Shown: piece after piece, positions 1 to 29,307 of the stretch | Layout: each line of letters begins with the position of its first letter | Numbering within the stretch: position 1 is the first letter of the stretch | Assembly (NCBI GenBank): GCA_963762115.1 | Contig: CAVXJH010000003.1 | Span: 352,001-416,000 of the forward strand | DNA from: Candidatus Babeliales bacterium | GTDB lineage: Bacteria > Babelota > Babeliae > Babelales > JANWKD01 | DNA length: 64,000 nucleotides | Direction: 5' to 3' | Notes under the pieces: generated by a model | What the model was told of the DNA's origin: nothing | The model's database searches: none | What the model saw: the letters and a program-made list of their open reading frames with translations, nothing else | Program-made: the position numbers and the translations under genes

Positions 1-912
1 CTGCATCCAGCTGCGCAATTTTTCTTCAACAGTACCTGGCAAATACCCTATATCTGGACCTAATGGAATAACAGGGCGAGAAATAAGCATTTTTTTATAT
101 GTTTCACTAACCACAACTTGTTGTAATCCGGCAAGAAGTGCCAGAAATGTTTTCCCTGTTCCTGCTGGCCCAATTAAACTCACTAAAGGAATAGCTGGAT
201 CTAACAATAAATCTAATGCCATAGCTTGCTGAGGATTTCGTGCTTCTAATGGCCATCTGAATAACGGGGGTTGATACCGCTTAAAATTCTTACCACCGAC
301 ATAACGAAACAGTTTATAGTTTTGTGGATTATTTCGGCTAGTAACTAACACAAATTCATTAAGAACCAAAGAATTTTCTTTTACTAAATCCAACAAATCA
401 TCGGGAAAATCTTTTTTTAATTGTATCGAAGGTAGTTCTAATTGACGCCATCCTTTATATATTTTTTCTCTTGAAACGCCATCTTTTTCATAATCTAAAG
501 CTTCGATGCCAAGCACATCAGCCTTAACCCGTGCATTAAGATCTTTTGATACAAAAAAAACATCATATCCTTGTTTTTTTAAACAAAGCCCCGTCATCAA
601 AATTTCATTATCAGCAATTTCCATTTTTAAAGGCATTGGGCCTGGTTGATCAGGCAAAAATAAAACTTTTATTATACTGCCATTTTCTAAATGTACTCCT
701 GTTCTTAATGAACCTTTTTTGCGCAAAGCATCAAGATGACGAATAACCGATCTTGAACCCGCACCCCTATCAGTACTTTCTCCTTTAAACTTATCTAATT
801 CTTCCAAAACAATTATAGGAATACCAACTAATTGATTATCAAAACTTAACAATGATGTTGGATCATAAATCAGAACGCTGGTATCTAAAAGATATATTTT
901 TTTTTCTGCCAT
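1..912 (-). CDS. PhoH-family protein with N-terminal PIN domain (PhoH2/YlaK-like), runs off window start
   Basis: Manual translation from ATG at 912: MAEKKIYLLDTSVLIYDP...IPIIVLEELDKFKG (PIN motifs), later SLIGPAGTGKTFLA (Walker A); absent from the ORF track because the stop lies outside the window. Confidence 0.9.
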   Translation of the reverse strand, partial: MAEKKIYLLDTSVLIYDPTSLLSFDNQLVGIPIIVLEELDKFKGESTDRGAGSRSVIRHLDALRKKGSLRTGVHLENGSIIKVLFLPDQPGPMPLKMEIADNEILMTGLCLKKQGYDVFFVSKDLNARVKADVLGIEALDYEKDGVSREKIYKGWRQLELPSIQLKKDFPDDLLDLVKENSLVLNEFVLVTSRNNPQNYKLFRYVGGKNFKRYQPPLFRWPLEARNPQQAMALDLLLDPAIPLVSLIGPAGTGKTFLALLAGLQQVVVSETYKKMLISRPVIPLGPDIGYLPGTVEEKLRSWMQ

Positions 913-7054: not shown

Positions 7055-8758
7055 ATGAACAAAGAAGAAAAATTACAAATTTTACGACATTCAGCGGCAC
7101 ATTTATTAGCTCAAGCAACAGTTGCACTGTATCCTAAAACAATTCTAACCATAGGTCCTGCGACTAAAGAAGGGTTTTTTTATGATGTTTTACCCCATCA
7201 AAATTTTAAGGAAGAAGATTTAGCAATCCTTGAAGCTAAAATGCATGAACTCTCAAAAAAAAATTATCCAATCACCCATGAAGAAATTTCAAAAGAAAAA
7301 GCTCGCGTTATTTTCAAAGATAACCCTTTCAAATTAGAACTGATTGAAGGAATACCTGGTGATACCGTAGGATTATCACGCCAAGGAGATTTTTATGACC
7401 TTTGTCGCGGTGGTCACGTTGCTTCAACCGGTGATATCAACTATTTTAAATTGCTCAACATTTCTGGCTCATATTGGCGTGCTGATAGAAACGGTCAAGC
7501 TTTGCAACGCATCACAGGAACTGCTTTTTTAAGTCAAGAAGATTTTAATGAATATGAAAGACTAAAAGAAGAAGCAGAAAAATATGATCATCGAAAACTT
7601 GGCAAGCAAATGAATCTCTTTTCATTTCATGATGAAGGAGTTGGCTTTCCCTTCTTTCATCCAAAAGGTAAAACGGTTATCAATATTTTGATTAATTTCC
7701 TTAAAAAAATTCTTGATCGCTACAATTACCAAGAAATTTCATCACCGATCATGTTAAGCGATGACTTATGGAAACAATCAGGTCATTATGCTCATTATAA
7801 AGATAATATGTATTTTTCAACCATTGATGAAAAACATTATGCAATACGCCCCATGAACTGTCCTGGTGCTATTTTGACGTATAAAGAACGACCTCATTCT
7901 TATCGAGAATTACCTTTAAAATTATCAGAATTTGGCCTTGTTCACCGTCATGAATTATCTGGTGTTTTACACGGATTATTTCGTGTACGAGCATTTACAC
8001 AAGATGATGCTCATGTTTTTTGCACGGTTAATCAACTGCAAGATGAAATATCCTCTATGATCAGTATGATTTTTCTTGTTTATAAAAAATTTGAATTCAA
8101 AGAAATAAAAGTTGCTGTCTCCACAAGACCAGCCAATTCAATGGGAAGTACTGAATTATGGGATACAGCCACCAATGCATTAACTAAGGCTCTTGATAAT
8201 CAAAAAATACCCTATACCATACAAAAAGGTGAAGGGGCATTTTACGGACCAAAAATCGAATTTATTATTCGAGATTCAATGGGCCGTGAATGGCAGTGTG
8301 GCACAATACAAGTTGATTTTGCCCAGCCTGAAAATTTTGATCTGTCATATGTTTCAGCACAAGGCAATAAAGAACGACCTGTTATGATACATCGAGCAAT
8401 ATATGGATCTATGGAAAGATTCTTTGGCATATTATTAGAGCATTTCAAAGGGCATTTACCATTTTGGTTAGCGCCAATACAAATAAAAATTCTCACTATT
8501 ACTGATGAGCAAAAAGAATATGCAAAGAAAATCATGCAAGAACTTAAGAATCAAGATGTTCGCATAGAGCTAGATGAATCATCAGATCCAATTTCGGGAC
8601 AAATTAAAACAGCACAATTGGAAAAAATTCCATGGATGTTAGTTCTTGGCAAAAAAGAGATGGCAAACGAAACAGTTACCTTACGTTATAATGATGGAAA
8701 ACAAGAATTTGGCATAACCTTCGATGAATTACTTACTAAAATTAAGGAAAATTCTTAA
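7055..8758 (+). CDS. thrS: Threonyl-tRNA synthetase (short form without N-terminal TGS domain)
   Basis: RHSAAHL and DLCRGGH editing motifs, DHRKLG, RPMNCPG, RVRAFTQDDAH, GAFYGPK, HRAIYGSMERF. Confidence 0.98.
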   Translation: MNKEEKLQILRHSAAHLLAQATVALYPKTILTIGPATKEGFFYDVLPHQNFKEEDLAILEAKMHELSKKNYPITHEEISKEKARVIFKDNPFKLELIEGIPGDTVGLSRQGDFYDLCRGGHVASTGDINYFKLLNISGSYWRADRNGQALQRITGTAFLSQEDFNEYERLKEEAEKYDHRKLGKQMNLFSFHDEGVGFPFFHPKGKTVINILINFLKKILDRYNYQEISSPIMLSDDLWKQSGHYAHYKDNMYFSTIDEKHYAIRPMNCPGAILTYKERPHSYRELPLKLSEFGLVHRHELSGVLHGLFRVRAFTQDDAHVFCTVNQLQDEISSMISMIFLVYKKFEFKEIKVAVSTRPANSMGSTELWDTATNALTKALDNQKIPYTIQKGEGAFYGPKIEFIIRDSMGREWQCGTIQVDFAQPENFDLSYVSAQGNKERPVMIHRAIYGSMERFFGILLEHFKGHLPFWLAPIQIKILTITDEQKEYAKKIMQELKNQDVRIELDESSDPISGQIKTAQLEKIPWMLVLGKKEMANETVTLRYNDGKQEFGITFDELLTKIKENS

Positions 8759-8947
8759 ATAATGAAAAAACCTTTTAAAACCGCAATTACACTCAATAGT
8801 AATTGACAAAATGGCATTATAAAATAAAACAAAAAAAAATAAATTTAAAATTGTTTTTGAAAAACCGTTGACTTCGACTTGCAATAACGATTACATTTAA
8901 ATTGTATGGTATGAAGTTGTAGTATTAATCCTTAACAAGGAGAAACA

Positions 8948-9307
8948 ATGGTTGCAAAGAGAAAAAAAGCTGCTCCAAAGAAGAGAACAGTAAAAAGAGC
9001 TGCTCCTAAACGTAAAGTAGCTAAAAAGGCTGCTCCTAAGAGAAAAACAGTTAAAAGAGCTGCCCCAAAACGTAAAGTCGTAAAAAGAGCTGCTCCTAAA
9101 CGTAAAGTAGCTAAAAAGGCTGCTCCTAAGAGAAAAACAGTTAAAAGAGCTGCCCCAAAACGTAAAGCCGTTAAAAGAGCTGCTCCTAAACGTAAAGTAG
9201 CTAAAAAGGCTGCTCCTAAGAGAAAAACAGTTAAAAGAGCTGCTCCTAAAAGACGTGTAGCTAAAAAAGTAGCTGTTACCACCCACATTGTCGGCGCTAC
9301 TCACTAA
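8948..9307 (+). CDS. Histone H1-like Lys/Arg/Ala/Pro repeat nucleoid protein (Hc2/HctB-like)
   Basis: 10-aa repeats KRKVAKKAAP/KRKTVKRAAP; strong SD aaggag before ATG; 90-bp DNA period at 9001, 9091, 9181. Confidence 0.85.
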   Translation: MVAKRKKAAPKKRTVKRAAPKRKVAKKAAPKRKTVKRAAPKRKVVKRAAPKRKVAKKAAPKRKTVKRAAPKRKAVKRAAPKRKVAKKAAPKRKTVKRAAPKRRVAKKVAVTTHIVGATH

Positions 9308-10920: not shown

Positions 10921-13506
10921 CTAATTTCCAAGCCAATCTTTCCATCCTCCCCATCCTTTGTTAGCATATACGCTATTTGGTGCAATAGGGATATCGATAG
11001 GACAAAAACCAGTTTTAGTCCATGTAAACCAATCTTCTTTACCCCTAAGAGAAAGACTTCTAGCAAAAGCTCTGGCTTCTTCAAACCCTTTAAATTCTTT
11101 TTTAAAACTCGCAATATTTCCGGTTCCTAAAAAATCACCCCAACCACACCATTCTTCAGCATAAACACTCCTAGGGTCGGCTGGAATATCGCTAGGTCGT
11201 TCTTCGCTTTTTGCAAAATTTGTCCAATCATTTTTATTTTTCAGATCAAGCGAATGTGCATATTTTCTTGCTTCAACAAATGTACAAAACTGGCGATTTT
11301 GGTTAGCAATTACATTAGTTCCTAAAAAATCCCCCCAACCTGCCCATCCCTTATTTGCAAAGGTTCTTTCTGGTTTACCTGAAATATCATTTGGCAATTG
11401 ATTATTTTTTTTATATTCACGCCATTCAAATTCATTTTTTAATCCAAGGGATTGCACAAATTTTTTTGTTTCTTCAAAAGAACGGAATTTTTGTTTTTGT
11501 GACGCGATAGTATTTGTACCTAGGAAATCTCCCCAATCTAACCATCCTTTATCTCTATATGCTTTATCTGGAGCTGAAGGAATATTTTTTGGTCTCTGAT
11601 CTGATTGTGCCCATTGAACCCATTCACTCCAGCTTTTTAAACCCAGATTTCTTGCAAAAGCTCTTGCTTCTTCAAATGGAACAAAATTTCGACTCATTTG
11701 AATTGCTTCACGCAGTTTTTCAAAAGTATTAATGTTACAAACACCACTTGTATAGCGAAGTAAAAATTCTAAAGGATTAGTTTTTTGTAAAATATCAAAA
11801 CCAATATCCTCAACAGAGATTCCTTGCATACGCAAAGTTTGACGGGACAACATACCCCATATTTGCTTAGCAACTTCTTCTTTGTGCTCAACAATACCAT
11901 AGCCATCAAGAATTTCAGGAATCATCCTCTTATATTCATCCCAAAGCCGTAAGGTGTCTTCAGCAGCTATTGGATCATTATTAATTATACTGATTAATTG
12001 GTTAGTAACATCTTCAACTAAGGATAATTTTTGAACTTCATCTGGAATTACAACGCTCAACCAATCATTACTTTTTTTAAAATCAACATTATTATTTTCA
12101 TTCTTTTTTTTCTCTAAAGGCATTTTGATTTTTACTGGATTGAAAATATTCTCTAAAATTAATGACGCATAAATTGCCTTGAGATAATCATTAAGATTGT
12201 TTCGAAACATTTCATCATCTTGTTGCTCTAAAGAGAAAGGTAATAGTTGAATAACTTCAATATGGCTTTTATTCGGGGCATCTCTAAAAAGCCGTCCAAT
12301 CATTTGTATTATATCAACCAATGATGATCGAGCGCCTACAATGATAGCACGATCAGCCCAAATCCAATTGGCACCTTCTTTGAACATCCCTAAAGCAATA
12401 ATAACATCTAGAGCTTCGCGGTCTGCTTTTAATCTTGGATCGTTGATAAAGTCCTTTTTTTCAATGCGCTGATTTTCATCAACAAGATCAAGAATTTTAA
12501 AATCTCCATTTTCATTGCTAATAATGTGCAAACCATTCACATTTTTGGAAATGATGCCATTATAAACCTTACTAAATTTATTAATGATATTTTCTACTTC
12601 TTGATATTTGTTTCCCATTGAATATAGAGAATTAGGATGTGGAACATAAATAATATCTTTTGCTTTTCTACTCAATGCTAATAACTCAATTGCTTTTGTA
12701 TAATCTTGACCACAAATCAAAAAATCAAAATTAAAGGATTTAAGATAGATCATTGAATTGAGATATTCATCATAGGGTAAATTAAATCTAATAAATTTAG
12801 ATTCCATAGCAGCAGTGAGCAAAGATCCTCTATCGCCACGAAAAAAAGAAGCTGTCGTAAGCCCAACTTGTAGATGACTTGAAAAATTATTCAAACAATA
12901 TGCAACTAATTCTCCAAGAGCATTGCTTATTACAACGCCTTTAAAAGCTTCATTTTCTAAATTTTTTACATGATGAGCTTCATCGATCCAAATTAAAAGA
13001 TTATTTAACAAATCCAAACGATTATCAAATTTTAATTTTTTATATACAGCAACTAAAGTAGCATGAGTACAAAGAATAACTTTTTCAGCAAAAACATCTG
13101 TAGGATTATTAAGCCAGCTGATCAAATATCTTACTGTGCCATTATGTGATTGATTTTTATTACAAAGATTATGGACAACTTTCCAATCTATTTTTTCTCC
13201 ATTTGGCATCTGGAAATTAGCTTCAGCAAAACCCGATGCTATTATAGTTTGTGGAACAGTAATTATAGCACGTAAAGCACGATCATTTTTCAATTTAAAA
13301 GCAGTTAAGAGACAAATCAACCAAGATTTACCACTTCCCATTGGAGCATTAATGATCATAAAAGGCTTCGTTTGTAACAACTCGAATGCTTTGATTTGCC
13401 AACCACGCATTGCAAAATAGCTGCCAGTCAAATCAGTAGATTGTTCAGCTTCGCTAGTTAAAATTAAATTAAAGCCTGTTTGTTTTAACGGCTCTTGATA
13501 GTCCAT
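10921..13506 (-). CDS. SF2 DEAH helicase/ATPase (YeeB-like) with four C-terminal ~65-aa Trp-rich repeats
   Basis: APMGSGKS, WIDEAHH, TASFFRGD, IALGMFKEG, QMIGRLFRD; repeats F..FEEAR.FA..L.LK...W...P..IP..P...Y...GW..WGDFLG. Confidence 0.85.
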   Translation of the reverse strand: MDYQEPLKQTGFNLILTSEAEQSTDLTGSYFAMRGWQIKAFELLQTKPFMIINAPMGSGKSWLICLLTAFKLKNDRALRAIITVPQTIIASGFAEANFQMPNGEKIDWKVVHNLCNKNQSHNGTVRYLISWLNNPTDVFAEKVILCTHATLVAVYKKLKFDNRLDLLNNLLIWIDEAHHVKNLENEAFKGVVISNALGELVAYCLNNFSSHLQVGLTTASFFRGDRGSLLTAAMESKFIRFNLPYDEYLNSMIYLKSFNFDFLICGQDYTKAIELLALSRKAKDIIYVPHPNSLYSMGNKYQEVENIINKFSKVYNGIISKNVNGLHIISNENGDFKILDLVDENQRIEKKDFINDPRLKADREALDVIIALGMFKEGANWIWADRAIIVGARSSLVDIIQMIGRLFRDAPNKSHIEVIQLLPFSLEQQDDEMFRNNLNDYLKAIYASLILENIFNPVKIKMPLEKKKNENNNVDFKKSNDWLSVVIPDEVQKLSLVEDVTNQLISIINNDPIAAEDTLRLWDEYKRMIPEILDGYGIVEHKEEVAKQIWGMLSRQTLRMQGISVEDIGFDILQKTNPLEFLLRYTSGVCNINTFEKLREAIQMSRNFVPFEEARAFARNLGLKSWSEWVQWAQSDQRPKNIPSAPDKAYRDKGWLDWGDFLGTNTIASQKQKFRSFEETKKFVQSLGLKNEFEWREYKKNNQLPNDISGKPERTFANKGWAGWGDFLGTNVIANQNRQFCTFVEARKYAHSLDLKNKNDWTNFAKSEERPSDIPADPRSVYAEEWCGWGDFLGTGNIASFKKEFKGFEEARAFARSLSLRGKEDWFTWTKTGFCPIDIPIAPNSVYANKGWGGWKDWLGN

Positions 13507-13732: not shown

Positions 13733-14668
13733 ATGACAATTGCAGATTTTTTAGATAAAAAACAAGAATTTCTCATTCATATTGATGTTGAAAAAAATCT
13801 TTCGGAAAACACGTACCGTGCTTATGAAAGCGATTTAGATCAATTTTATATATTTTGGCAAAATATAAATAGTCAGGCAACTGAAGAAATTCCCTTAAGA
13901 AGAGCTCTCGAGCGTTTTTTGATTATGTTGTATCATAAAAAAATTGATAAAAGCACCATTGCTCGAAAACTTTCTTGTTTTCAATCTTTTGAAAAATATA
14001 TTCTCAGCAGAGGCGTCGAACTACGTTTAAAATTAACGCGTCCACGTTTAGATAAAAAATTACCAATATATCTCAGTATTGATGAAATAATTCATTTATT
14101 AGACACCATAAAAAATGAAGATCTGCCAACAAAAAATCCCTTACGAGACAAATCAATCTTCGAATTATTATATGCAACAGGAGTGCGTTGTTCTGAATTA
14201 GTAAATATCAAAATCGATGAAATTGATTTTGAACAAAAAATAATTAGAATCCTTGGAAAAGGTAAAAAGGAACGGATTGTTCTTTTTGGCAGCAAAGCAC
14301 TAAGAAAATTGCAAGAATATATTGAATTTGAACGTCAAGGAATCAGTGAGTGTCCTTATCTTTTTCTTAATAATCGCAACGAACAATTAACAAGTAGGTC
14401 AGTTCAAAGAATTTTTGAGATGTTTAGAAAATTTTTAAAAATTGAACGAAAAATCACTCCTCATAAAATTAGACATTCTTTTGCAACACATCTCTTAACC
14501 CAAGGTGCCGACTTGCGTATTGTTCAAGAACTTCTTGGCCATAAAACTATAGCAAGCACTGAAAAATATACCCATTTAACCGTTGTAGAGCTGACAGAAT
14601 TATGTGATACCCTTCATCCAATACACAACTTTGAAAAAATAAGGGACAAAAAGAATGAAGGCTCCTGA
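13733..14668 (+). CDS. xerC: Tyrosine recombinase XerC/XerD family
   Basis: YATGVRCSEL, GKGKKER, HKIRHSFATHLL, VQELLGH, TEKYTH; XerC versus XerD is not certain. Confidence 0.85.
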   Translation: MTIADFLDKKQEFLIHIDVEKNLSENTYRAYESDLDQFYIFWQNINSQATEEIPLRRALERFLIMLYHKKIDKSTIARKLSCFQSFEKYILSRGVELRLKLTRPRLDKKLPIYLSIDEIIHLLDTIKNEDLPTKNPLRDKSIFELLYATGVRCSELVNIKIDEIDFEQKIIRILGKGKKERIVLFGSKALRKLQEYIEFERQGISECPYLFLNNRNEQLTSRSVQRIFEMFRKFLKIERKITPHKIRHSFATHLLTQGADLRIVQELLGHKTIASTEKYTHLTVVELTELCDTLHPIHNFEKIRDKKNEGS

Positions 14669-16442: not shown

Positions 16443-17642
16443 TTGACGATGAAATTGAAGCATATAAATATATTTTTATTTCTCTCTTTTATTTTCATTA
16501 TTATGATAAATTCTCAAATACTATCAATGGAGAAAGGGGAAAAAGGAAAGGAAAAAGAAAATGTGCCTAGATTAAAACTACCTAAACATAAATCTCCCTA
16601 CGTATTGGATAAAAAATCACCATTATCACCTCATCGATTTCAGAACAGTGAAATTCGACGAAAAGCTTCAAACCTACAAAATGCTTATGAATTTGAAGAA
16701 TTTATAAAATTTGTTCATCACCCAACAATAGATACACGTCATAAAGAGTTTGTTCAATTTCGCTTGGCATTAAATCTTTATGCAAAATTTGAAGAATTTA
16801 ATACCTATGCGACTGCCGATGGAGAACCTGTCGAACCCGATACTACGATAACTATCAAACAAATTGTTCGAGAATTAGGATCAAAATATCACTTTAATCA
16901 GGGAAAATACTATAAAAATAAAGCTCATAAAAAAATGAAAGCGAGTAGAGCAGAACAAGAAAGTTCCGAAACTCAAATTACTTTATTTCAAAAAGCTTTG
17001 CATTTGGCATCAAAAGCAAAAGAATATTTTGAAGAATCTTTAAAGATTAATGAAGATGAAAACACCAAAGATATGTATATTAAAGCTGATAATTTTTTAA
17101 AAAAACTAGAAAAAAATTATCAACTCTTGCCTAGCTATCAAGAAGCACTTAAAACTACTCATAAAGCTCATTCAAAACAAACAGATGCACATGAAAATCT
17201 AGAAAAAACACATACATTATCCAAATCAAATAAAGAACCACAACCACCAAGTTCATTTTCTTTGAAAAAAAACAAAAAAAAAATCTACGCCACTGAAAAA
17301 AAACAATATCACCAAAAAAAAGCAACATACTTAGATGAATTGGAAAAAGCTGAAGAAAAATTTATTGAAGCAGCACTACAATATTTAAATGCATCAGAAC
17401 TGATATTGGATCGACGTATATTGGAAGGAGCACGTAGATCATTAGAGAGTATTTATCAAGTTGAAGCAAAAAAAATAAAAGAAAATCCAAGTTATGTTAC
17501 TATTAAACCAATAATTAGAGAAATAGCTAAAAGAATTGAATTAGGCTTCAAAAAAATTCAAGAACGAGAAGAAAGCAGTTCTGGTATTGGCACAGACAGT
17601 AGCAATGAACATTATATTGGTGGCAAGAAGCAAGAAAAATAA
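16443..17642 (+). CDS. Secreted Lys-rich helical hypothetical protein
   Basis: Long ORF, signal-peptide-like N-terminus, SD ggag. Confidence 0.7.
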   Translation: MTMKLKHINIFLFLSFIFIIMINSQILSMEKGEKGKEKENVPRLKLPKHKSPYVLDKKSPLSPHRFQNSEIRRKASNLQNAYEFEEFIKFVHHPTIDTRHKEFVQFRLALNLYAKFEEFNTYATADGEPVEPDTTITIKQIVRELGSKYHFNQGKYYKNKAHKKMKASRAEQESSETQITLFQKALHLASKAKEYFEESLKINEDENTKDMYIKADNFLKKLEKNYQLLPSYQEALKTTHKAHSKQTDAHENLEKTHTLSKSNKEPQPPSSFSLKKNKKKIYATEKKQYHQKKATYLDELEKAEEKFIEAALQYLNASELILDRRILEGARRSLESIYQVEAKKIKENPSYVTIKPIIREIAKRIELGFKKIQEREESSSGIGTDSSNEHYIGGKKQEK

Positions 17643-17759: not shown

Positions 17760-18878
17760 ATGAGATTTCATAGTATGTTTTTTTTGGTTTTTCTAGGAAT
17801 GCACGCCAATATCTTTCCCATGGGCGATGATGAAAAAGGATATCATTCTGAATCCGATAAACGTTCTCAAGTAAGCAAAAAATGGAATAATGCCAAAACA
17901 GCTCCTAGAAAAAATAATCCATTACAGGAATCAAAAAAAAAACGTCATTCGCTTACTCTCTTTAGAGAATCTTCAAATAAAAATAAAATTAAAAGTGAAC
18001 AATCATCATTTCAAGAAAAGAATACTGAAGAAAGTTCTCTTGGGCTCTATACTACGGCGCTCTATGTTCTTGGAGAACGTAGTGGAAAACGAGAACAATT
18101 TATTGCTATCCAATTTCTTGAAAACACCTTAAAAAATACCACAAACTTAGATAGAAAAACAAAACATGTTATAGCAGAAAAAATCAAAAAATATTATATC
18201 AAGTATTATGATGCAAAAACAAAAGCATATTTTATTTCCAGTCAACGATTCGTACAAGAAGCAAGAAAAACAACAGATGAAATACATCAATTACAATTAT
18301 TACAAACAGCTCAAAAAAAAATAGAAAAATCACTTACCTATCTAGAACTCAAAATGCAGCAGACTGGACAAAGCCATGATGATTGCAAAGATTTTAAAGA
18401 AATTAGCGATACCCTATTGTCTTTAATGGATTTTAAAAAAGCCAAGCCCGAATATATTAACAATCAAATAGTCATAGAAGCAGCTAAAAAAACAGAAGAA
18501 CAAGCTCAACAACACTTAAAATTAGCTCAGTCCATAAAAAAAAGGGAAACAACTAAACCTCCAAAAAGAAAAGAAAAAACAGTAACAGCAGGTCTTCTTC
18601 ATATGCTCGGAAAAAAGAAAAAAAAATTAGATAAGCTTAATGCAAAACATAAAAGAAATAGAACTTTTCCTGAAGTCTTAACAGAAAGTATGCAACCAGA
18701 TCCACAAGATACTCGCGCACAACAGCTTACACAAGCACAAGATTTACTTATTGGATCTGCTAGAACATTACTCGTTGAATCATCTCAAAATAAAAGGCTG
18801 AACAGATTAAATACCATTATTGAAACAGTAGGCGATATTGAAGAAGAAGAAATTGTTATAAAAACTAAAGCACATTAA
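17760..18878 (+). CDS. Secreted Lys-rich helical hypothetical protein
   Basis: Long ORF, signal-peptide-like N-terminus, SD aagggg. Confidence 0.7.
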   Translation: MRFHSMFFLVFLGMHANIFPMGDDEKGYHSESDKRSQVSKKWNNAKTAPRKNNPLQESKKKRHSLTLFRESSNKNKIKSEQSSFQEKNTEESSLGLYTTALYVLGERSGKREQFIAIQFLENTLKNTTNLDRKTKHVIAEKIKKYYIKYYDAKTKAYFISSQRFVQEARKTTDEIHQLQLLQTAQKKIEKSLTYLELKMQQTGQSHDDCKDFKEISDTLLSLMDFKKAKPEYINNQIVIEAAKKTEEQAQQHLKLAQSIKKRETTKPPKRKEKTVTAGLLHMLGKKKKKLDKLNAKHKRNRTFPEVLTESMQPDPQDTRAQQLTQAQDLLIGSARTLLVESSQNKRLNRLNTIIETVGDIEEEEIVIKTKAH

Positions 18879-18933: not shown

Positions 18934-19206
18934 TTATTTTTTTGTTGCAGCGTTAACTTTTTTTGCTAAACGACTAATTTTTCTCGATGCTGTTTTTGGA
19001 TGAAGAATATTTTTACCCTTTGCACGAGATAATTTTGCTTCAGCATCTTTTAACAATGCCTGCATCTTTACTGCATCTTCATTATTTTCAACAGCAGTTA
19101 AAACTTTTTTTACTGCTGTTTTAATTGAAGTTCTGCGAATAACATTTTTCTTACGACGACCAATGTTTTTTCTAGCTTGCTTTTTTGCTGATTTTGTATT
19201 TGCCAT
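18934..19206 (-). CDS. rpsT: 30S ribosomal protein S20
   Basis: MANTKSAKKQAR...KGKNILHPKTASRKISRL. Confidence 0.97.
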   Translation of the reverse strand: MANTKSAKKQARKNIGRRKKNVIRRTSIKTAVKKVLTAVENNEDAVKMQALLKDAEAKLSRAKGKNILHPKTASRKISRLAKKVNAATKK

Positions 19207-19230
19207 TTTGACCTATTAAACCTTTAAGTT

Positions 19231-19434
19231 CTAGACTACTTTTTCAACTTTACCTGCTTTAACACATTTTGTACAAACGGCACCACGTGTAACTTTTTTT
19301 GAATTAGTTCCAACCATAACAAAAGACATCTTATGGACATTGGGATAAATCCAACGTTTTACCCTATTTCTAGCGTGACTAACTAAATTTCCAACGTGAG
19401 GGCGTTTAGTACAAACAACACAAATTCTTGACAT
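19231..19434 (-). CDS. rpmB: 50S ribosomal protein L28
   Basis: MSRICVVCTKRP.VGNLVSHA.N..KRW..PN...VCTKCVK. Confidence 0.95.
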   Translation of the reverse strand: MSRICVVCTKRPHVGNLVSHARNRVKRWIYPNVHKMSFVMVGTNSKKVTRGAVCTKCVKAGKVEKVV

Positions 19435-19526: not shown

Positions 19527-22169
19527 TCAGGATAATTTAAAATCCTGTCGTGGCTCTATACCTAAAAGTGCATAGATCTCACTAGCAAATAATGTTTCTT
19601 TTTCATATAACATATTGGCAAGCGTTTCAAGTTTGTCACGATTACTTTTCAATAATTCTTTAACTTTCATATAAGAATTTTCTAATAACTTTTGAACTTC
19701 AGCATCAATCCGTTCAGCAGTTTTTTGAGAATACTGATATTCTCCCTGATTTTGCGTATAAACGACTGTTCCTAGTCCTTCTGACATACCATAAGAACAA
19801 ATCATTTTCCGCGCTATTTCAGTAGCTTTTTCAAAGTCATTAGACGCGCCCGTTGCAAGAACATTAAAAATAAGTTCTTCTGCGGCTCGCCCGCCTAAAC
19901 ATACCATAATAACTGCCAACATCTCATCTTTTGTTTGAGTATATTTTTCTCTTTCAGGTAATGAATGAGTAACTCCTAATGCTCTACCACGCGGAATGAT
20001 AGTCACCTTATGCAAGGGATCACTATGATCAGGTAATAATAACCTAACCAGAGCATGCCCTGATTCATGAAATGCGGTGATTTTTCTTTCTTCGGGCGAA
20101 AGTATAATTGTTTTTAATTCTTTACCAAGCATAACCTTATCACGCGCTTCTTCAAAATCATGCACCGTAATATTCTCTTGCTCTTGATTTTTAGAGCCAT
20201 GCAAGGCTGCTTCATTAACGAGATTTGCTAATTCTGCACCCGAAAATCCTGGCGTCCCACGAGCAATTTTATTTAAATTAACTGAAGAATCAAGTTTTAC
20301 CCCTTTGGCGTGTAGAGATAAAATCTTTTCACGACTTGTTACATCAGGATAAGGAACTTCCACTCTTCTATCAAACCTTCCCGGTCTTAATAATGCATTA
20401 TCCAATGACTCTGCACGATTTGTAGCAGCCATAACAATAACGGCACTTCCGTCAGAATCAAAGCCATCCATTTCTGTTAACAATTGATTTAATGTTTGAT
20501 TACGTTCTTCATGGCCACCAATACCCGTCACTCGTTTGGTACCAACAGCATCGATTTCATCAATGAAAATAATGCTTGGCTTATGCTTACGCGCTTGAGC
20601 AAATAAATCACGTACCCGAGATGCACCCACACCAACATACATTTCAACAAATTCTGAAGCACTTACCGAGAAAAATGGGCAATTAGCTTCACCGGCAACA
20701 GCCTTCGCAAGCAATGTTTTACCATTACCCGGATCACCAACCAATAAAATGCCTCGCGGAATTTTGGCACCAAGACGTTTATACCGTTCTGGGTTTTTTA
20801 AAAATTCAACAACATCACGCAATTCTTCTTTAGCTTCCTCTACACCAGCAACACTATCAAAAGTACATTTTACCTGAGAAGGCATAAACAATTTGCCCTT
20901 TGTGGCACCTTTTGCAGCTGAATTACTTGAAGATGACTGGTTTTTATGAGATTCAAGCAACGCTTTGTGTGCATCCTCAATATCTTGTTGGCCAACAGAT
21001 TCTTTATTTTTCTTAGAAGCATTAATTGCAGCCTTATTCATAAGATTAGCAAGATCAGCGCCACTAAAACCGGCTGTTTCTTCAGCAACCTTTTTTAAAT
21101 CTATATCAACACCCATCTTAAGCCCTTGAGCATTAATCTGTAATATTTGCTCACGACTAAGCGTATCAGGGAAAGATACTTCCACTCTTCTATCAAATCT
21201 TCCTGGCCTTAACAAAGCTTTATCAAGAACATCTGGCATATTAGTAGCAGCTATAACAATAACCGATGAACCTGCCGTATCAAAGCCATCCATCTCCGTC
21301 AAAAGCTGATTAAGCGTTTGCTCACGTTCATCATGACCACCGCCAAAACCACTCCCACGCTGCCTGCCAATTGCATCAATTTCATCAATAAAAACAATAC
21401 TCGGCGCATGTTTACGTGCTTGCGCAAATAGATCTCGAACACGAGCAGCGCCAACACCGACAAACACTTCAATAAAATCTGAACCGGTTATGCTAAAAAA
21501 GGGACAATTTGCTTCTCCAGCAACAGCCTTTGCAAGCAATGTTTTACCATTACCCGGCTCCCCAACGAGCAGAACACCCCGTGTTACCTTTGCACCAAGA
21601 CGCTTGTATTTTTCAGGATTTCTTAAATAATCAACAACATCCTTAAGTTCTTCTTTAGCATCAGTTGCACCCGCAACTGATTTAAAATTTACCTTAATAG
21701 TTGAAGGCATAAACATTTTTGCCTTGCTTTTGCCCATACTAAAAATATTACTGCCGCCTCCAGACCCACGTGATTGTCTGAAAAAATACCATACGCCCAA
21801 CGGCATAAGTAAAAAAGATGCAAGTAACAATAAGTGCCAAAAACTAAATTGTGCTGCTAAAGGAGCAACGGAAAATTCAACACTGTGTTCTCGTAATAAA
21901 TCAAGGTTTTTAGGATTATCAGCAATTACCGCCTCAAATCGAGTCCCATCTTTCAAAATCCCATACACATCTTGCCCATTAATATGGACCGATTTAACTT
22001 CATTGTTTTCAATAGCATCAAGATAGGTTGAATATGAAATGTTTTTCACATGACGCGTATAATCGGTTAATTTCGTGAGTAATGCTATGGAAATCACAAA
22101 AAAGAGCACTACAAAGACTAAGTGCTTGGGTCCGCGCGCAAAAGGATTATTTTTTAGTTTTTGTTTCAT
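19527..22169 (-). CDS. ftsH: FtsH ATP-dependent Zn metalloprotease with two tandem AAA+ modules
   Basis: Two TM segments, two sets of Walker A ([16 protein letters not shown]), Walker B (FIDEID) and SRH ([10 protein letters not shown]), then HESGH M41 motif. Confidence 0.95.
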
Positions 22170-22407
22170 AATTAACCCATTCTTGTTATATATTTTTCAA
22201 AAATACTATTTCCAGCAATTCATGAATTATGAAAAGCTGACGCCTTATTTATATATTCTAATTGTACTATAAAATATAAAAAATAGAAAGTTCTGGTTAA
22301 TTATATTATAAAATATGCGTACTGTCGACATTTTATGAAGAAAATAAGCAGAATTTAGCATCTATAGGGCAGCGAAATACAATACTAGTATAGAAGTTGT
22401 TTCTCCA

Positions 22408-23739
22408 TCAGGCAAATATGCTCAAATCTGTATAGTTGGGTGACCAAGCCGGATAACTACATTCCTCATCTTCACCAGTCAAAAAAAACCTTTCACCGGT
22501 CAGCATATTAAATATGACGATTCTACTACTTTTGCCCTCTTTAAGAACAAAAGCCAGGTAATTCCCACAGGGCGACCATGAACATTCATCTTTGTTGCCC
22601 TTATCAAAGGTAATTTGCTTATGTTCTTTTGTATCCATAGTATACATAAAAACTTGCATATCATTACCTATTAATTTTGAATAGGCAATCGAATTATTTT
22701 TATCAGAATAATGAGGAGAAGCACAGTAGCCGCCTTGCGTTAATCTCTTAGTTTCACCAGTTGCCGGCGTTAAACAATAAAGTTGTGGGCTCTTCGTTTC
22801 AAAATCAGAACAAAAAATAATATCACCATTTTCACACAAATTAGGGGAAGTATTATTACCCTGGTTATGCGTTAATCTTTTAGTAATGCCTTTTTTGGCT
22901 ACCTGATCAAAATAATAATAATATAACTGGCAACTTCCTCTATGCGAAGCACAATAAACCACCTTTTGACCATCAAGTGAAAAACTTGCCAACATAGTAA
23001 GTCCATCAAAATTAGAAATAATCTTTCTCGTGCCATCCAATGCAACAGACATAAGCCGAATATTAGCTGGCGTTACTTCAGAATAGAGAATCAAGGGATT
23101 ATTTTTATCCTTATTCCATCGCGGCGCTAATAATTTACCACCTTTAACAAAACAAACAGCGCTATCTTGCATCGGACTTTGAATATAAATATTTTTTAAG
23201 ATTTGCTTATCTTTTTTGATAACTTTACAATAAGCGATTTTAGTCAAAAAAATGCTTTCTTGACCTGTTAATAGCTTCCAAAGTTGATCTGCAATACTAT
23301 GCGCCGTGGCCTCAACGGTGTTTTGCAAAGCAATCCGCTTTCCTTTTTGCATAGATGCTTGCAAAGAATCATATAATCGCCACTCAATGCTACCTTCTTT
23401 GGTCATTGAAAGTAAAATAACTACACTGAAGCCATCAATAAAAAAGTTTTTCATCTTTTTTATTGATGGAATATCGCTTAAATGCTGTATTTCAACATTG
23501 AAACCACTCAGTTTTTGTTGTTTGCAGGACAAATCATCCTGCACAACAGCGGCAATTTTTAACAACTCAGGAGTTGGGCTCAGTAATCCCAATAATAATT
23601 TCATTTTTTCTTGCTGTTGATTTTTGATAGTCATCTGTATTTGATTATTATTTTTCAGATCAGCTTTCAATACATTATTAGTGCAGAAGCTCACAATAAC
23701 AAAGAGACAATATACTATTTTTCTCATTCTCATTCTCAT
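22408..23739 (-). CDS. tolB: TolB-like beta-propeller protein
   Basis: Signal peptide, AHSIADQL..LTG, PD40-like repeats ending SYPAWSP; last gene of the tolQRA cluster. Confidence 0.85.
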   Translation of the reverse strand: MRMRMRKIVYCLFVIVSFCTNNVLKADLKNNNQIQMTIKNQQQEKMKLLLGLLSPTPELLKIAAVVQDDLSCKQQKLSGFNVEIQHLSDIPSIKKMKNFFIDGFSVVILLSMTKEGSIEWRLYDSLQASMQKGKRIALQNTVEATAHSIADQLWKLLTGQESIFLTKIAYCKVIKKDKQILKNIYIQSPMQDSAVCFVKGGKLLAPRWNKDKNNPLILYSEVTPANIRLMSVALDGTRKIISNFDGLTMLASFSLDGQKVVYCASHRGSCQLYYYYFDQVAKKGITKRLTHNQGNNTSPNLCENGDIIFCSDFETKSPQLYCLTPATGETKRLTQGGYCASPHYSDKNNSIAYSKLIGNDMQVFMYTMDTKEHKQITFDKGNKDECSWSPCGNYLAFVLKEGKSSRIVIFNMLTGERFFLTGEDEECSYPAWSPNYTDLSIFA

Positions 23740-23748
23740 AGGTGGTTA

Positions 23749-24537
23749 TTAAAAAATAAGTTCGATGTCTTTATGCCAAATAGTTTTTGGAAATGGATAA
23801 CTCAACACAAAATTCTTTACCATAATATCAAGCGCTAAAGCTTGTGAAGATTGTACAATAGCAACATCACGATTTGTTTCAGAATGCACACATACCTTCA
23901 CATGACATTCCGTTAATGCTGAAATGTTAGCAGGGCGCTTCCATGCTTTTGCAATCCCCTCCTTAATCTCATTACAAAGCGCAATGAGTTCCAAATCATA
24001 GCGACCGACCTCTTGTATAGCCGAACTTGAATTTATTACCGGTTCTACTTTTTTAATTTCATCTTTTTTTACTACTGCCTCGTTAAGCTTTTCATTCTTT
24101 TTTACCATGAGTTCTTTTTTAGGAATGATCTTAGGAATAGTTTTTTTTGGCACTAGTTTTTCTGGCATCTTTGGAAGAATTTTTGATTTATTCTGCGTAC
24201 TATTTTTTTTAACGGGAATAGTTTTTTTTGGCATCACGGGTAATTGAACTGTTTTTTTTTGTACAAGTTTTTTAGATGGCAATGATGCTATTTTTTTTAC
24301 CACCGTTGGTTGCTGAACTGCTGGAGAAATTGTTTTCATCAAAGGCATGAGTATCACCATTGAACCATCAGAAATTTCTGATAAACGAATAACATCAGAT
24401 GAAAAAAATGATTGAGTCATTAATAAAAGCATAAAAAAAATACAATGAATCAAAAACGAAAACAGTACTAATTTTACAAAAAAAATATTTTTTTTAGGCA
24501 GCCTGGGCAGCAAGCTTCTCAGTTGCAATTGCAACAT
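23749..24537 (-). CDS. TolA/TonB-like protein (true start uncertain)
   Basis: TM with SFLIH motif, Lys/Pro-rich linker, C-terminal WKRP...QSS..LALD domain; between tolR and tolB. Confidence 0.7.
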   Translation of the reverse strand: MLQLQLRSLLPRLPKKNIFFVKLVLFSFLIHCIFFMLLLMTQSFFSSDVIRLSEISDGSMVILMPLMKTISPAVQQPTVVKKIASLPSKKLVQKKTVQLPVMPKKTIPVKKNSTQNKSKILPKMPEKLVPKKTIPKIIPKKELMVKKNEKLNEAVVKKDEIKKVEPVINSSSAIQEVGRYDLELIALCNEIKEGIAKAWKRPANISALTECHVKVCVHSETNRDVAIVQSSQALALDIMVKNFVLSYPFPKTIWHKDIELIF

Positions 24538-24943
24538 CTTTCACTCCTCCAACTACCTTTATACGATCGATGACGCTAATTAAGATATTTGCCGAACAAG
24601 ATTGTTGTCGATCAACACGTACCCATACTCTTTTTGCTTCTCGAGAATTTTGAATATTCGATGCCAAACATTCTTTTATTACTTGTCCAATAGTTTCAAG
24701 CGTAACAGGCTTATTATTACAATAAATCATTTCATTTTTATCAATAGCAACGACAATTTCCTGTTGCTCTTTTCCTGCTTCCTGTGCTGCACCCTTTGGC
24801 AAATCTATTTTAATTGAATTTTGAATCATCGGTGTTGTAACCATAAAAATTATTAATAATGTTAATGCAGTATCAATAAGAGGAGTCAGCGTAATTTCTA
24901 ATGACGGAGCAAGCGACTTTTTTCTACGTTTTAATGACTGCAT
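24494..24943 (-). CDS. TolR/ExbD family protein
   Basis: LTPLIDTALTLLIIFMVTTP, IDLPK. Confidence 0.92.
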   Translation of the reverse strand: MQSLKRRKKSLAPSLEITLTPLIDTALTLLIIFMVTTPMIQNSIKIDLPKGAAQEAGKEQQEIVVAIDKNEMIYCNNKPVTLETIGQVIKECLASNIQNSREAKRVWVRVDRQQSCSANILISVIDRIKVVGGVKDVAIATEKLAAQAA

Positions 24944-24956
24944 AGCACAGCTCCTC

Positions 24957-25652
24957 TCAAATTTTCTCTTTAAGAAAAAGTCTTTGTATAATCCAATTAA
25001 ATTTATCAGCTACCGTAAAAAGTTGATATTCTATTGAACGAATTTGTGCAATCAAATAATGATACATAACTAAAGCAGGAACTGCCACTAATAATCCTGC
25101 CAAGGTAGTAATTAATGCTTCTGCAATACCAGGTGCAACAGTGGTTATATCAGCCGACTGTTTTTCACTAATACGAATAAATGCATGCACTAAACCCCAC
25201 ACCGTACCAAATAATCCTAGTAAAGGTGAAACGGATGCGCTGGTAAATAAAAATGGCAGATACGATTCTTCGGTTCTCATAAGATCATCTATATTTTGCT
25301 CTATTTGTTGTTGCAAATAAGAGCATTCGTTTTGAGTAATATGAGTTTTTGTAGCATCATGCTCAAGCAATGCCTTCAACACTGAAAGATTTTTTTTCAA
25401 AAAATAGCCCGGCAATGTATCAATCATTCCTGACGTGATCACACGCATTTCTTCAAATGTTTGAACTTCTTTTAATTGTTGCAGCATTTGATTAAGTTGA
25501 CGTCGTTTTACGTTCAAAAGAATTATTTTATATAAAAATATTGCCCAGCAAATAATAGACATGCCCAAAAGTAACAAAAGAACTAGTTTGGTTACTAAGT
25601 CTGATTGCTTTACTAACAACCACAAACTATTCCCGGTAAAACTGTAAGCCAT
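24957..25652 (-). CDS. TolQ/ExbB family proton channel
   Basis: SPLLGLFGTVWG, VAPGIAEALITTLAGL. Confidence 0.93.
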   Translation of the reverse strand: MAYSFTGNSLWLLVKQSDLVTKLVLLLLLGMSIICWAIFLYKIILLNVKRRQLNQMLQQLKEVQTFEEMRVITSGMIDTLPGYFLKKNLSVLKALLEHDATKTHITQNECSYLQQQIEQNIDDLMRTEESYLPFLFTSASVSPLLGLFGTVWGLVHAFIRISEKQSADITTVAPGIAEALITTLAGLLVAVPALVMYHYLIAQIRSIEYQLFTVADKFNWIIQRLFLKEKI

Positions 25653-28014: not shown

Positions 28015-29307
28015 TTATGAAATTGCACAATATGATTTTTCTAATGCAACATGATTTTGTAAAAAACTAGTCAATGCTGGCTTCTGATTCAAAATTAAGT
28101 TTGTATAAATTTCTGCGATTTCTGGGCTAGCATTAAGATCAATTTTTTGGCCGTTGCCTATGAATTCTAAAGCCCATCGTATGAGCAATATACCTTCAAT
28201 AGGTAATGACATAATTTCATCATGCAACATTGGATTTACTAAATGCAAACGCCCGATAATTGTTTTATATTGTATCTTTTTATCAAGCACTATTTCTCCA
28301 TTCACATCAAATTTAACAGAACACTTACAATTTGACCTATAAGATTTACATCTTAAAGATATAAGGTTCCAATCTTGAATAATCCATTTATTACGCTTAT
28401 GAGAAGTTGCTACCACATGTAAACCATCTAATGAGAATGCCACCGATTCAAGACCTTCTTCAGCCGATAGACGATTACATTTTTCAGTTCCCAAATTCCA
28501 AATGCGCACCACATTATCATCCGAAGCAACCGCTAATTTAGCATTGTTAGGTGAAAAACAAAGAGCTTTAACACGAGATCGACTCGGCAACGAACTTACG
28601 ATTCCTTCTTTTATGTTATATACTTTAATATCACTACAATTATTCAAAGCAACTGCTAGCAAAGCTTTGTCCGCAGAGAGCACATATGAACTTATTGTAG
28701 TATTTTTTAAAACTTCTTGAATACATGCCGGTAATACACATTGTTGAGTCATACCATATCGTTGCGCCATATGATGACCGATTAAAACAGAAAGTTCAAC
28801 AGGTAAATCAAATTGGAAACACCATGCTTTCATTTGCTCGATATTCATAATTTTAAATTGAGCAATCACGTTATAAGCAACGGTCTTTGCACAACCTTCA
28901 AGCAATGTTTCACAATTCAGACAATTAGCACTATTTAAAATCTTTATAAGCATTTCGACTGAAAAATTTTGTTCATTAAGATGTTTAAAAACAAGATTAA
29001 TTTTTTCCTCGAGCGCTAATTCATTGTTTTTTACTAATAACTCAAAAATTGGTTTTATGATAGCAAGTTCAACCGATCCAATTTCAGGTAAAGCCAAAGG
29101 CTCATTAGCCGCATTATTCTTTTCGGGAAGATCGGAATCATCACGAATCATATCGGCGAGAACTTTTGATTGCTCTGCACAAGCATGACTCAAGGTAATC
29201 TGCACGCCATCATTTGTCTCTAGAGTAATATCATCCATGCCATACAGCATCGATACACTACTAAAAATCATTCCCCAGAAAAAAAATTGTTTTATTGTAC
29301 TCTTCAT
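28015..29307 (-). CDS. Secreted SKP1/BTB-like plus WD40 protein (candidate effector)
   Basis: ITLETNDG..ITL...AEQSKVLADMI and LIKILNSANCLNCETLLEGCAKTVA (SKP1-like); VKALCFSPNNAKLAVASDDNVVRIWNL (WD40). Confidence 0.8.
   Translation of the reverse strand: MKSTIKQFFFWGMIFSSVSMLYGMDDITLETNDGVQITLSHACAEQSKVLADMIRDDSDLPEKNNAANEPLALPEIGSVELAIIKPIFELLVKNNELALEEKINLVFKHLNEQNFSVEMLIKILNSANCLNCETLLEGCAKTVAYNVIAQFKIMNIEQMKAWCFQFDLPVELSVLIGHHMAQRYGMTQQCVLPACIQEVLKNTTISSYVLSADKALLAVALNNCSDIKVYNIKEGIVSSLPSRSRVKALCFSPNNAKLAVASDDNVVRIWNLGTEKCNRLSAEEGLESVAFSLDGLHVVATSHKRNKWIIQDWNLISLRCKSYRSNCKCSVKFDVNGEIVLDKKIQYKTIIGRLHLVNPMLHDEIMSLPIEGILLIRWALEFIGNGQKIDLNASPEIAEIYTNLILNQKPALTSFLQNHVALEKSYCAIS

Follow-up and report, generated by a model that had tools for sequence, protein, structure and literature searches.

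FtsH is regarded as an AAA+ protease with a single ring; why ClpA and p97 need two rings when other unfoldases have one is a standing question. Type II p97-like unfoldases form double rings, as described in passages of one report (PMC5447069), and in ClpA the D1 ring engages the substrate and the D2 ring unfolds it, according to an excerpt of another (PMC8666677). The DNA considered here is a stretch of 64,000 nucleotides, hereafter the window, from a Candidatus Babeliales bacterium (GCA_963762115.1, contig CAVXJH010000003.1, positions 352,001 to 416,000 of the forward strand). Its ftsH gene (19527..22169, reverse strand) encodes in one frame a protein of 880 amino acids (P0001) with two AAA+ modules, designated D1 and D2. 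Judged from its sequence, this protein is an FtsH by its anchor, motifs, protease and locus, and differs from the described members in possessing a second complete AAA module. It would most plausibly act as a hexamer in which two stacked ATPase rings separate the membrane anchor from a single six-membered ring of M41 protease domains, a reading to which a probability of roughly 0.6 is given. The protein is the sole intact FtsH found in this genome, which is 95% complete.

All segments of the protein are encoded on the reverse strand. Transmembrane (TM) helix 1 (residues ~14-39, 22053..22130) is a hydrophobic stretch that forms a helix at 14-39 in the AlphaFold model, and is followed by a periplasmic FtsH_ext domain (~40-108, 21846..22052; Pfam PF06480 at 19-101, E 8.8e-11) and TM helix 2 (~110-133, 21771..21842; helix 110-133 in the model), giving the N-terminal TM-periplasmic-TM anchor of the FtsH family. 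A Gly-rich linker (134-150, 21720..21770), in which the predicted local distance difference test (pLDDT) score falls below 50 at 134-152, leads from the membrane into the cytoplasm. D1 (151-403, 20961..21719) has an intact pore-2 loop and a diverged lid end, and carries Walker A K209, pore-1 F236, Walker B D262/E263, DGF 294-296, sensor-1 N310 and Arg fingers R321/R324. A Ser-rich linker of 21 residues (404-424, 20898..20960; pLDDT <50 at 411-425) connects it to D2 (425-688, 20106..20897), with a degenerate pore-2 region and a canonical lid end (R676/D677); the corresponding residues are K484, Y511, D537/E538, DGF 568-570, N584 and R595/R598. The M41 zinc protease domain (689-867, 19569..20105) contains HESGH at 701-705 (nt 20069-20055), D778 and the ring-base residues G794, M795, G800, Y804, Y813 and D822. 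The Walker A strings are GEPGNGKT at residue 203 (nt 21563) and GDPGNGKT at residue 478 (nt 20738), FVG and YVG stand at 236 and 511, FIDEID at 260 and 535, ATN at 308 and 582, and a further 10-letter motif begins at 319 in D1 and 593 in D2. The classic-clade AAA module with Walker A/B, pore-1 aromatic, sensor-1 and the Arg fingers of the second region of homology is therefore present twice in place of the canonical single module per chain, and the C-terminal M41 domain with HEXXH and a downstream Asp once. This Asp, which we take to be the third zinc ligand of M41, is 100% conserved together with H701, E702 and H705 in 44 tandem proteins. Pfam returns FtsH_ext, AAA and AAA_lid_3 in two stretches each, and Peptidase_M41 at 689-867 (PF01434, E 2.9e-64). 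The FtsH model TIGR01241 scores 1173 bits summed over two stretches (cut-off 600), and PRK10733 scores 920, under its cut-off of 1008. A first-pass annotation of the window, made by a model from the letters alone, had set out the same anchor, two modules, Ser-rich linker and single M41 domain, and every motif that it quoted lies where it placed it. The only other M41-like gene found in the genome (G000:C3:198938-201685, reverse strand), outside the window, encodes a divergent 916-residue protein, 26% identical, whose long N-terminus is unrelated and whose Walker A is altered; HQSGH replaces HEXXH, so that the catalytic Glu is missing. It is likely a protease-dead FtsH paralogue.

D1 and D2 are identical at 167 of 256 amino acid positions (65%), and at four-fold sites of conserved residues the third positions agree in 27 of 64. 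The longest DNA block common to both is 26 nt (21557-21532 and 20732-20707) and the second longest 20 nt. Since copies at 65% identity have diverged at third positions, and since the same architecture occurs in independent genomes, the gene is, on comparison of its two halves, an old in-frame duplication and not a collapsed or doubled contig. The first-pass annotation had argued likewise against misassembly from the diverged copies and the 26-nt block (at 20707 and 21532), an argument now strengthened by 45 genomes. Fusion of two adjacent ftsH paralogues was also considered and ruled out as a source, as D2 plus M41 is closest to the single housekeeping FtsH (68-71%); the neighbouring paralogues, without an anchor and on long branches, speak against it too.

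In a junction-centred search, 112 of the best 120 proteins (the query and one partial protein included) have two modules and M41, six have four modules and two have three, which bears out the AAA-AAA-M41 architecture that the first-pass annotation proposed to search for. All nine two-module matches with a named taxon are Babeliales, Babeliaceae or Dependentiae. The phylum Babelota is strictly intracellular in protists, according to part of a published account (PMC12172432). In a phylum set of 261 genomes, 257 have a match and at least 49 (about a fifth) have a best match across both modules, these genome counts resting on the 150 of 618 matches listed. Translation confirmed two modules in all 45 genomes fetched of the 49, and the other genomes among the matches listed have an ordinary single-AAA FtsH of ~610 residues. 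Within the stretches fetched, tolB or rpsT of a tolB-ftsH-rpmB-rpsT locus was found for 41 of 45 tandem and 52 of 56 single genes, and this common neighbourhood identifies both as the same housekeeping gene. The spacing from Walker A to Walker A is 268-279 residues in 45/45 proteins and 275-276 in 31 of them, and the D1-D2 linker is poorly conserved in sequence and nearly fixed in length. The tandem ftsH of two further genomes, G009 (L028) and G097 (L027), is broken into several frames, by sequencing error or as a pseudogene, and that of G041 is split across contigs. Additional FtsH paralogues in Babelota have two modules but lack the usual membrane anchor (L029 in G109, L025 in G061, L026 in G079 and L107 in G107); their module spacing is shorter (263-273) and HEXXH is altered or missing in some. 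The phylum also has several anchor-less or signal-peptide-like FtsH paralogues, some adjoining the housekeeping gene (L021-L024).

Across the 45 tandem proteins, D1 and D2 alike show no variation at the Walker A Lys, the Walker B Asp-Glu pair, the sensor-1 Asn, either Arg finger or the D and F of DGF, nor at R271/R546 and E281/E555. The pore-1 aromatic residue is likewise present in 45/45 of both modules (D1, 44 F and 1 Y; D2, 39 Y and 6 F). Judged against 58 single-module orthologues, the two modules have drifted at different places. R269, R282 and E283 are kept in every D1, and the matching D2 positions in 5, 14 and 0 of 45. Conversely, R585 (45/45), R676 (44/45) and D677 (45/45) are kept in D2, and the matching D1 residues R311, R401 and D402 in 9, 3 and 2 of 45; P366 is found in no D1, and its counterpart P640 in 30 D2 modules. 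R311 in D1 and E557 in D2 are thus reciprocal losses, with R585 and E283 retained. These residue counts show a reciprocal specialisation, in which D1 keeps the pore-2 loop and the start of the next helix and drifts at the sensor-1 loop and lid, and D2 does the reverse. By an approximate count against a same-genus orthologue, the proportion of nonsynonymous differences (pN) is 0.015 for the large subdomain of D1, 0.051 for that of D2, 0.056 for M41 and 0.246 for the linker; that of synonymous differences (pS) is 0.66-0.83 (0.83 and 0.66 for the D1 and D2 large subdomains). Every segment is therefore under purifying selection, the linker least, and both modules look catalytically active.

Multi-module FtsH proteins are found outside Babelota as well. 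The best 120 long proteins retrieved with a single-module orthologue comprise 81 with three modules and M41, 21 with four, one with six, two multi-module proteins without M41 and 15 polyproteins of whole FtsH units; as the ranking favours many modules, these counts are not frequencies. No five-module protein with M41 was counted among these 120, and an apparent one proved to have four modules and a stray Walker-A-like string. The named taxa are Actinomycetota (Acidimicrobiales, Thermoleophilaceae, Solirubrobacterales), one Chloroflexota and Muribaculaceae, among them the cultured gut bacterium Sodaliphilus pleomorphus, whose protein (WP_423828368.1) has four intact modules; one Muribaculaceae multi-module cluster has 1047 members. 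When 150 representatives at 50% identity were inspected, 21 carried between two and four modules ahead of a single M41 domain and 125 had one module. In a quick module tree, from which single-module genes of those phyla were absent, modules of one lineage cluster together, and six multi-module groups besides Babelota have support 96-99. Module number varies within groups (2/3/4 in one clade, 3/4 in Muribaculaceae and 3/4/6 in a third), with middle modules duplicated. In three lineages, labelled by amino-acid composition, the first modules keep D231 and the acidic pore-2 residues, and in the last modules R269 is lost and the acidic residue at the lid end (Asp/Glu) retained, so that the terminal modules of separate lineages converge. 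Walker A/B motifs and Arg fingers are nearly always intact in the three-, four- and six-module set (P0005-P0010, P0122-P0137, P0139, P0141-P0218, P0262). Two other kinds of protein were noticed: multi-module FtsH-like ATPases in which no M41 was detected (P0140, 1905 residues with six Walker-A-like motifs, P0138 and P0408), and whole-gene polyproteins of the form AAA-M41-TM-AAA-M41 (P0121, P0219-P0232, P0327), of which the named ones are dinoflagellate (Symbiodinium, Polarella, Effrenium).

The geometry of the tandem protein can be approached from the residues that act between subunits. Arg fingers and DGF act across neighbouring AAA modules, according to part of a preprint on AFG3L2 (bioRxiv 10.1101/551085), and because they are invariant in both D1 and D2, each module should sit in a ring. 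As for the protease, the ring-base residues are retained in the 44 tandem proteins at levels close to those of 46 single-AAA orthologues (G794 100%, M795 97%, G800 100%, Y804 93%, Y813 88%, D822 100%). By residue spacing rather than structural alignment, AFG3L2 T654, M666, G671, F675, Y689 and E700 correspond to T783, M795, G800, Y804, Y813 and E824. The same preprint, in the sections available, locates these AFG3L2 residues at or close to the interface of the protease ring, puts M666 and G671 at the contact between subunits and reports that M666R abolished hexamer recovery. This Met is kept in 98% of 73 and 8/8 three-module proteins, in 16/16 and 4/4 four-module proteins and in the six-module protein (1/1). 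As a pseudo-ring of six modules would leave these proteins at most two M41 domains, its retention speaks for a six-membered M41 ring. The D2 plus M41 part of the model superposes on a single FtsH protomer (3kds, Z 40.7, root-mean-square deviation (rmsd) 4.6; 6nyy, Z 37.0, rmsd 2.8). Considering that the M41 interface is kept, that module number varies as 2/3/4/6 among relatives and that four does not divide six, stacking is favoured. Of the two geometries offered by the first-pass annotation, the stacked double ring thus gains on the indirect grounds of interface retention and module number, and the trimeric pseudo-hexamer becomes the less likely one.

In such a stack, membrane-tethered D1 would engage and extract the substrate through its intact pore-1 and pore-2 loops. 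D2 would dock on the protease through its canonical lid, and its aromatic pore-1 residue would add grip, pull on the chain and hand it to the zinc sites. This division of labour is drawn by analogy with ClpA. The gain would be unfolding of greater strength or processivity, each protease ring being served by 12 ATPase sites, and the simplest guess as to the benefit for an intracellular bacterium is stronger unfolding of stable substrates.

Several points weigh against stacking. Both AlphaFold models, one of the full protein and one of D1-D2 alone, leave the placement of D1 and D2 undefined (predicted template modelling scores 0.51 and 0.53), with the single domains confident and the linker at pLDDT <50, and D1-D2 superposes poorly on its p97 counterpart (rmsd 11-12 Å over ~490 residues). 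Conservation of the M41 residues may reflect no more than the fold of the domain itself, and the preprint, in the same sections, gives AFG3L2 F675/Y689 as intra-subunit (bioRxiv 10.1101/551085). M41 is also somewhat less conserved in the tandem proteins, with a mean retention of 0.915 at 58 columns, six of which are below 75%. The degenerate pore-2 loop sits in D2, the protease-proximal module, and in AFG3L2 pore-loop 2 mediates transfer to the protease (bioRxiv 10.1101/551085, in part). Finally, the drifted D1 lid, the linker and the D2 pore-2 loop and helix would equally form the intra-chain interface of a side-by-side pseudo-ring, implying that the pattern of drift fits both geometries. A complex prediction with two copies of residues 161-660 scored 0.00 with the controls not folded, and counts neither way.

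That pseudo-ring is the best surviving rival, although an unlikely one: three chains would close a single ring in which D1 and D2 alternate, giving it three membrane anchors and three protease sites, and three-module forms would be dimers and six-module forms monomers. The coincidence of drift with a possible intra-chain interface, including the reciprocal losses of R311 and E557, speaks for it. The numbers 2, 3 and 6 all divide six, three modules being the commonest long form (81 of the best 120) and five not being counted at all. The 35 residues from the lid end to the first helix of the following module would suffice as a connection; engineered linked ClpX rings are said to have had linkers of ~20 residues. 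Against this stand the four-module proteins (21 of the best 120, in several lineages), the differences in module number among close relatives, the interface Met retained in three-, four- and six-module proteins, and the Muribaculaceae linkers, which span the same interval in only ~18 residues.

Less probable still is a hexamer with one working ring (or a D1-large/D2 hybrid), in which the other module would be an ATP-binding scaffold, a spacer or a regulator moving the protease away from the membrane. The outer halves of the repeat (D1 N-part and D2 C-part) are indeed nearest to single-AAA orthologues, at 77%/61% compared with 70%/54% for the inner halves; collapse to a single module appears to be tolerated in genome G011, and most of the phylum does without a second module. 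This proposal is opposed by the hydrolysis and trans-acting residues found in 45/45 of both modules and by the strong purifying selection on both large subdomains. A nearly neutral duplication, retained through complementary degeneration with no functional gain, is very improbable. It is compatible with the stacked geometry and differs on the benefit only, and the complementary degeneration, the faster evolution of both copies, the patchy presence (6-9 state changes on three trees) and the apparent reversion agree with it; but degeneration alone would not preserve all catalytic residues in both copies, and the repeated expansions seen in no fewer than six other groups, some reaching six catalytically intact modules, would be costly without benefit. 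An assembly or gene-calling artefact can be set aside for practical purposes: although public sequencing runs include none with half of the gene's words (best share 0.17), and the four examined hold only relatives (word share ≤0.17) and yield no single contig or piece across the whole linker, the divergence of the copies and the recurrence of the architecture in 45 genomes and 112/120 database homologues contradict it. Among the public runs listed, no RNA run carries the gene.

The D1-versus-D2 phylogeny called for by the first-pass annotation groups the modules by position and not by genome, with nearest neighbours of the same kind for 44/45 and 43/45. A site-mixture model tree (45 of 148 rows) supports D1 at 97 and D2 at 88. 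The C-terminal halves of D1 all fall into a single cluster (45/45, support 99), two changes are required for the N-terminal halves of D2, and the outer halves mix with single-AAA sequences. The tandem state is scattered, with 9 changes on the anchor plus M41 tree, 7 on the TolB tree and 6 on the gene without the inner repeat, 4-5 of them forced by strong branches. These trees left out G009, G097, two G061 fragments, one non-FtsH ATPase and G171 (M41 cut), and the second tree set also G238 and G220, in which the motif was not matched. A single gain followed by several losses fits the grouping by position despite the scattered tandem genomes, and the duplication therefore probably arose once, in the ancestor of Babelota. 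Against this, duplications specific to each lineage withstood approximately unbiased tests (p 0.259 and 0.061), the deep branches of the repeat tree are not resolved, and a change at P366 of D1 is found in unrelated Muribaculaceae modules too, so that convergence is real. The P366-to-A change shared by D1 modules, once considered as proof of a single origin, was ruled out because it recurs in unrelated first modules, and a lineage-marker test found 0-19 usable sites per group, too few. The single-module ftsH of G011 (L034; G011:C11, open reading frame 7424-9262, forward strand) is nested among tandem genes with support 95-99 on three trees. It has the D1-type I311 (found in 1 of 58 single genes) and E313, is D1-like up to about residue 335 and then has a D2-type lid, suggesting that it is likely a collapse of the duplication by a D1/D2 crossover.

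Around ftsH, the window contains tolQ-, exbD/tolR-, tolA- and tolB-like genes upstream (22408..25652, reverse strand; Pfam MotA_ExbB, ExbD and PD40), the tolA-like gene being labelled by position only, with no Pfam match. Such tol-type genes also flank single-AAA ftsH orthologues in a conserved neighbourhood. Downstream are rpmB (L28) and rpsT (S20) (18934..19434, reverse strand), assigned by Pfam and conserved synteny. A candidate sigma-70-like promoter upstream of ftsH (22300..22328, reverse strand) matches 11 of 12 consensus bases, which is not evidence of function; the scan gave 18 sites versus 12.8 ± 3.6 in shuffles. Just beyond rpsT, two adjacent forward-strand genes (16443-17642 and 17760-18878) encode proteins rich in Lys and Glu, whose N-termini resemble signal peptides and which have no Pfam match. 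As to other proteases, the genome has two Lon proteases (window 42347-44815, forward strand, and G000:C6), and a search of this genome alone for ClpP-family proteins, made with compensation for a lost protease in mind, gave one weak match (35 bits). Further along, an 861-residue ResIII/DEAD-like helicase (10921-13506, reverse strand) carries about four repeats at its C-terminus, which end in a W.GW.DFLG-like motif, and its gene lies in a lower-GC stretch adjoining a XerC-like integrase (13733-14668). A 1924-residue protein (1114-6888, forward strand) has only diffuse repeat-like Pfam matches, no stretch passing alone. A 430-residue protein (28015-29307, reverse strand) has a signal-peptide-like start, an N-terminal part resembling Skp1/BTB by eye and WD40 repeats.

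The first-pass annotation had allowed that the architecture might already be widespread and characterised. Widespread it is, in at least 49 of 261 genomes and in several other lineages; as to characterisation, no description was found. Searches of open-access literature, judged by titles and the beginnings of abstracts and exclusive of subscription journals and supplements, gave no paper on multi-AAA FtsH, and word searches in the accessible text of two papers, one on FtsH phylogeny (PMC10850787) and one on TM6 genomics (PMC4776705), gave nothing relevant. The two-module FtsH belongs to a recurrent class of multi-AAA FtsH proteases that is apparently undescribed. Such proteins will already be present, without remark, in domain-architecture databases, and annotation pipelines label them "FtsH" or "AAA family ATPase", hiding the architecture. 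A bolder and tentative idea is that FtsH is an extensible motor, on which two, three, four or even six active rings have been stacked independently in many lineages, the first module capturing, the last docking and the middle ones being gained and lost like the folds of an accordion. If so, it would be the first membrane-anchored multi-ring AAA+ protease; we know of no other AAA+ machine in which one chain supplies more than two stacked rings. Relatives with one- and two-module versions at the same locus, an apparent natural reversion, and the three-, four- and six-module forms together make a natural test series, which bears on the contribution of an additional ring and on whether three or more rings can couple on one substrate. 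The four-module Sodaliphilus pleomorphus protein would then help to test ring number against unfolding power. Were the trimer correct instead, FtsH would work with only three, two or one protease sites, and either geometry changes the textbook architecture of FtsH.

Compared with known systems, the tandem protein shares its anchor, classic-clade AAA motifs and M41 HEXXH with FtsH, m-AAA and i-AAA proteases (TIGR01241; PDB 3kds, 7tdo, 7wi4, 6nyy and 6az0), which have one AAA module per chain where it carries two; the 13 top-ranked solved FtsH-family sequences (439-644 residues) are too short for two modules and M41. With p97, Cdc48, VAT and NSF it shares two tandem classic-clade modules at similar spacing (model 159..680 aligning to p97 200..744), but no p97-type N-domain was found by Pfam, its place being taken by a membrane anchor and a covalent protease, and the TIGR01243 score of 444 is under the cut-off of 802.65. 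Because its modules are 66-67% identical to single Babelota FtsH and ~37% to p97, the duplication is separate from that of p97. The likeness to p97/NSF/ClpA noted in the first pass thus holds for architecture only, both modules descending from FtsH itself. Dinoflagellate FtsH polyproteins also have two FtsH AAA modules in one frame, but they repeat whole genes, each with its own M41 (14 of the best 120 and one longer), in contrast to the single M41 and single anchor here. Dynein/midasin-type linked AAA rings have several modules per chain, fixed at six and of another clade; they are the model for the pseudo-hexamer, whereas the module number of multi-AAA FtsH varies (2/3/4/6) and a protease follows. 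ClpAP, with two rings of divided labour on a protease, is the functional analogue of the stacked arrangement; it is soluble, of the Clp clade and paired with a separate ClpP, in contrast to one membrane-anchored chain with covalent M41 and modules that are copies of each other. ClpA/ClpB models are absent from the best 25 of 43 NCBIfam matches, and those of ClpX and HslU are far under cut-off. The tandem FtsH would therefore seem to work like a type II unfoldase while belonging to neither the p97/NSF nor the Clp families.

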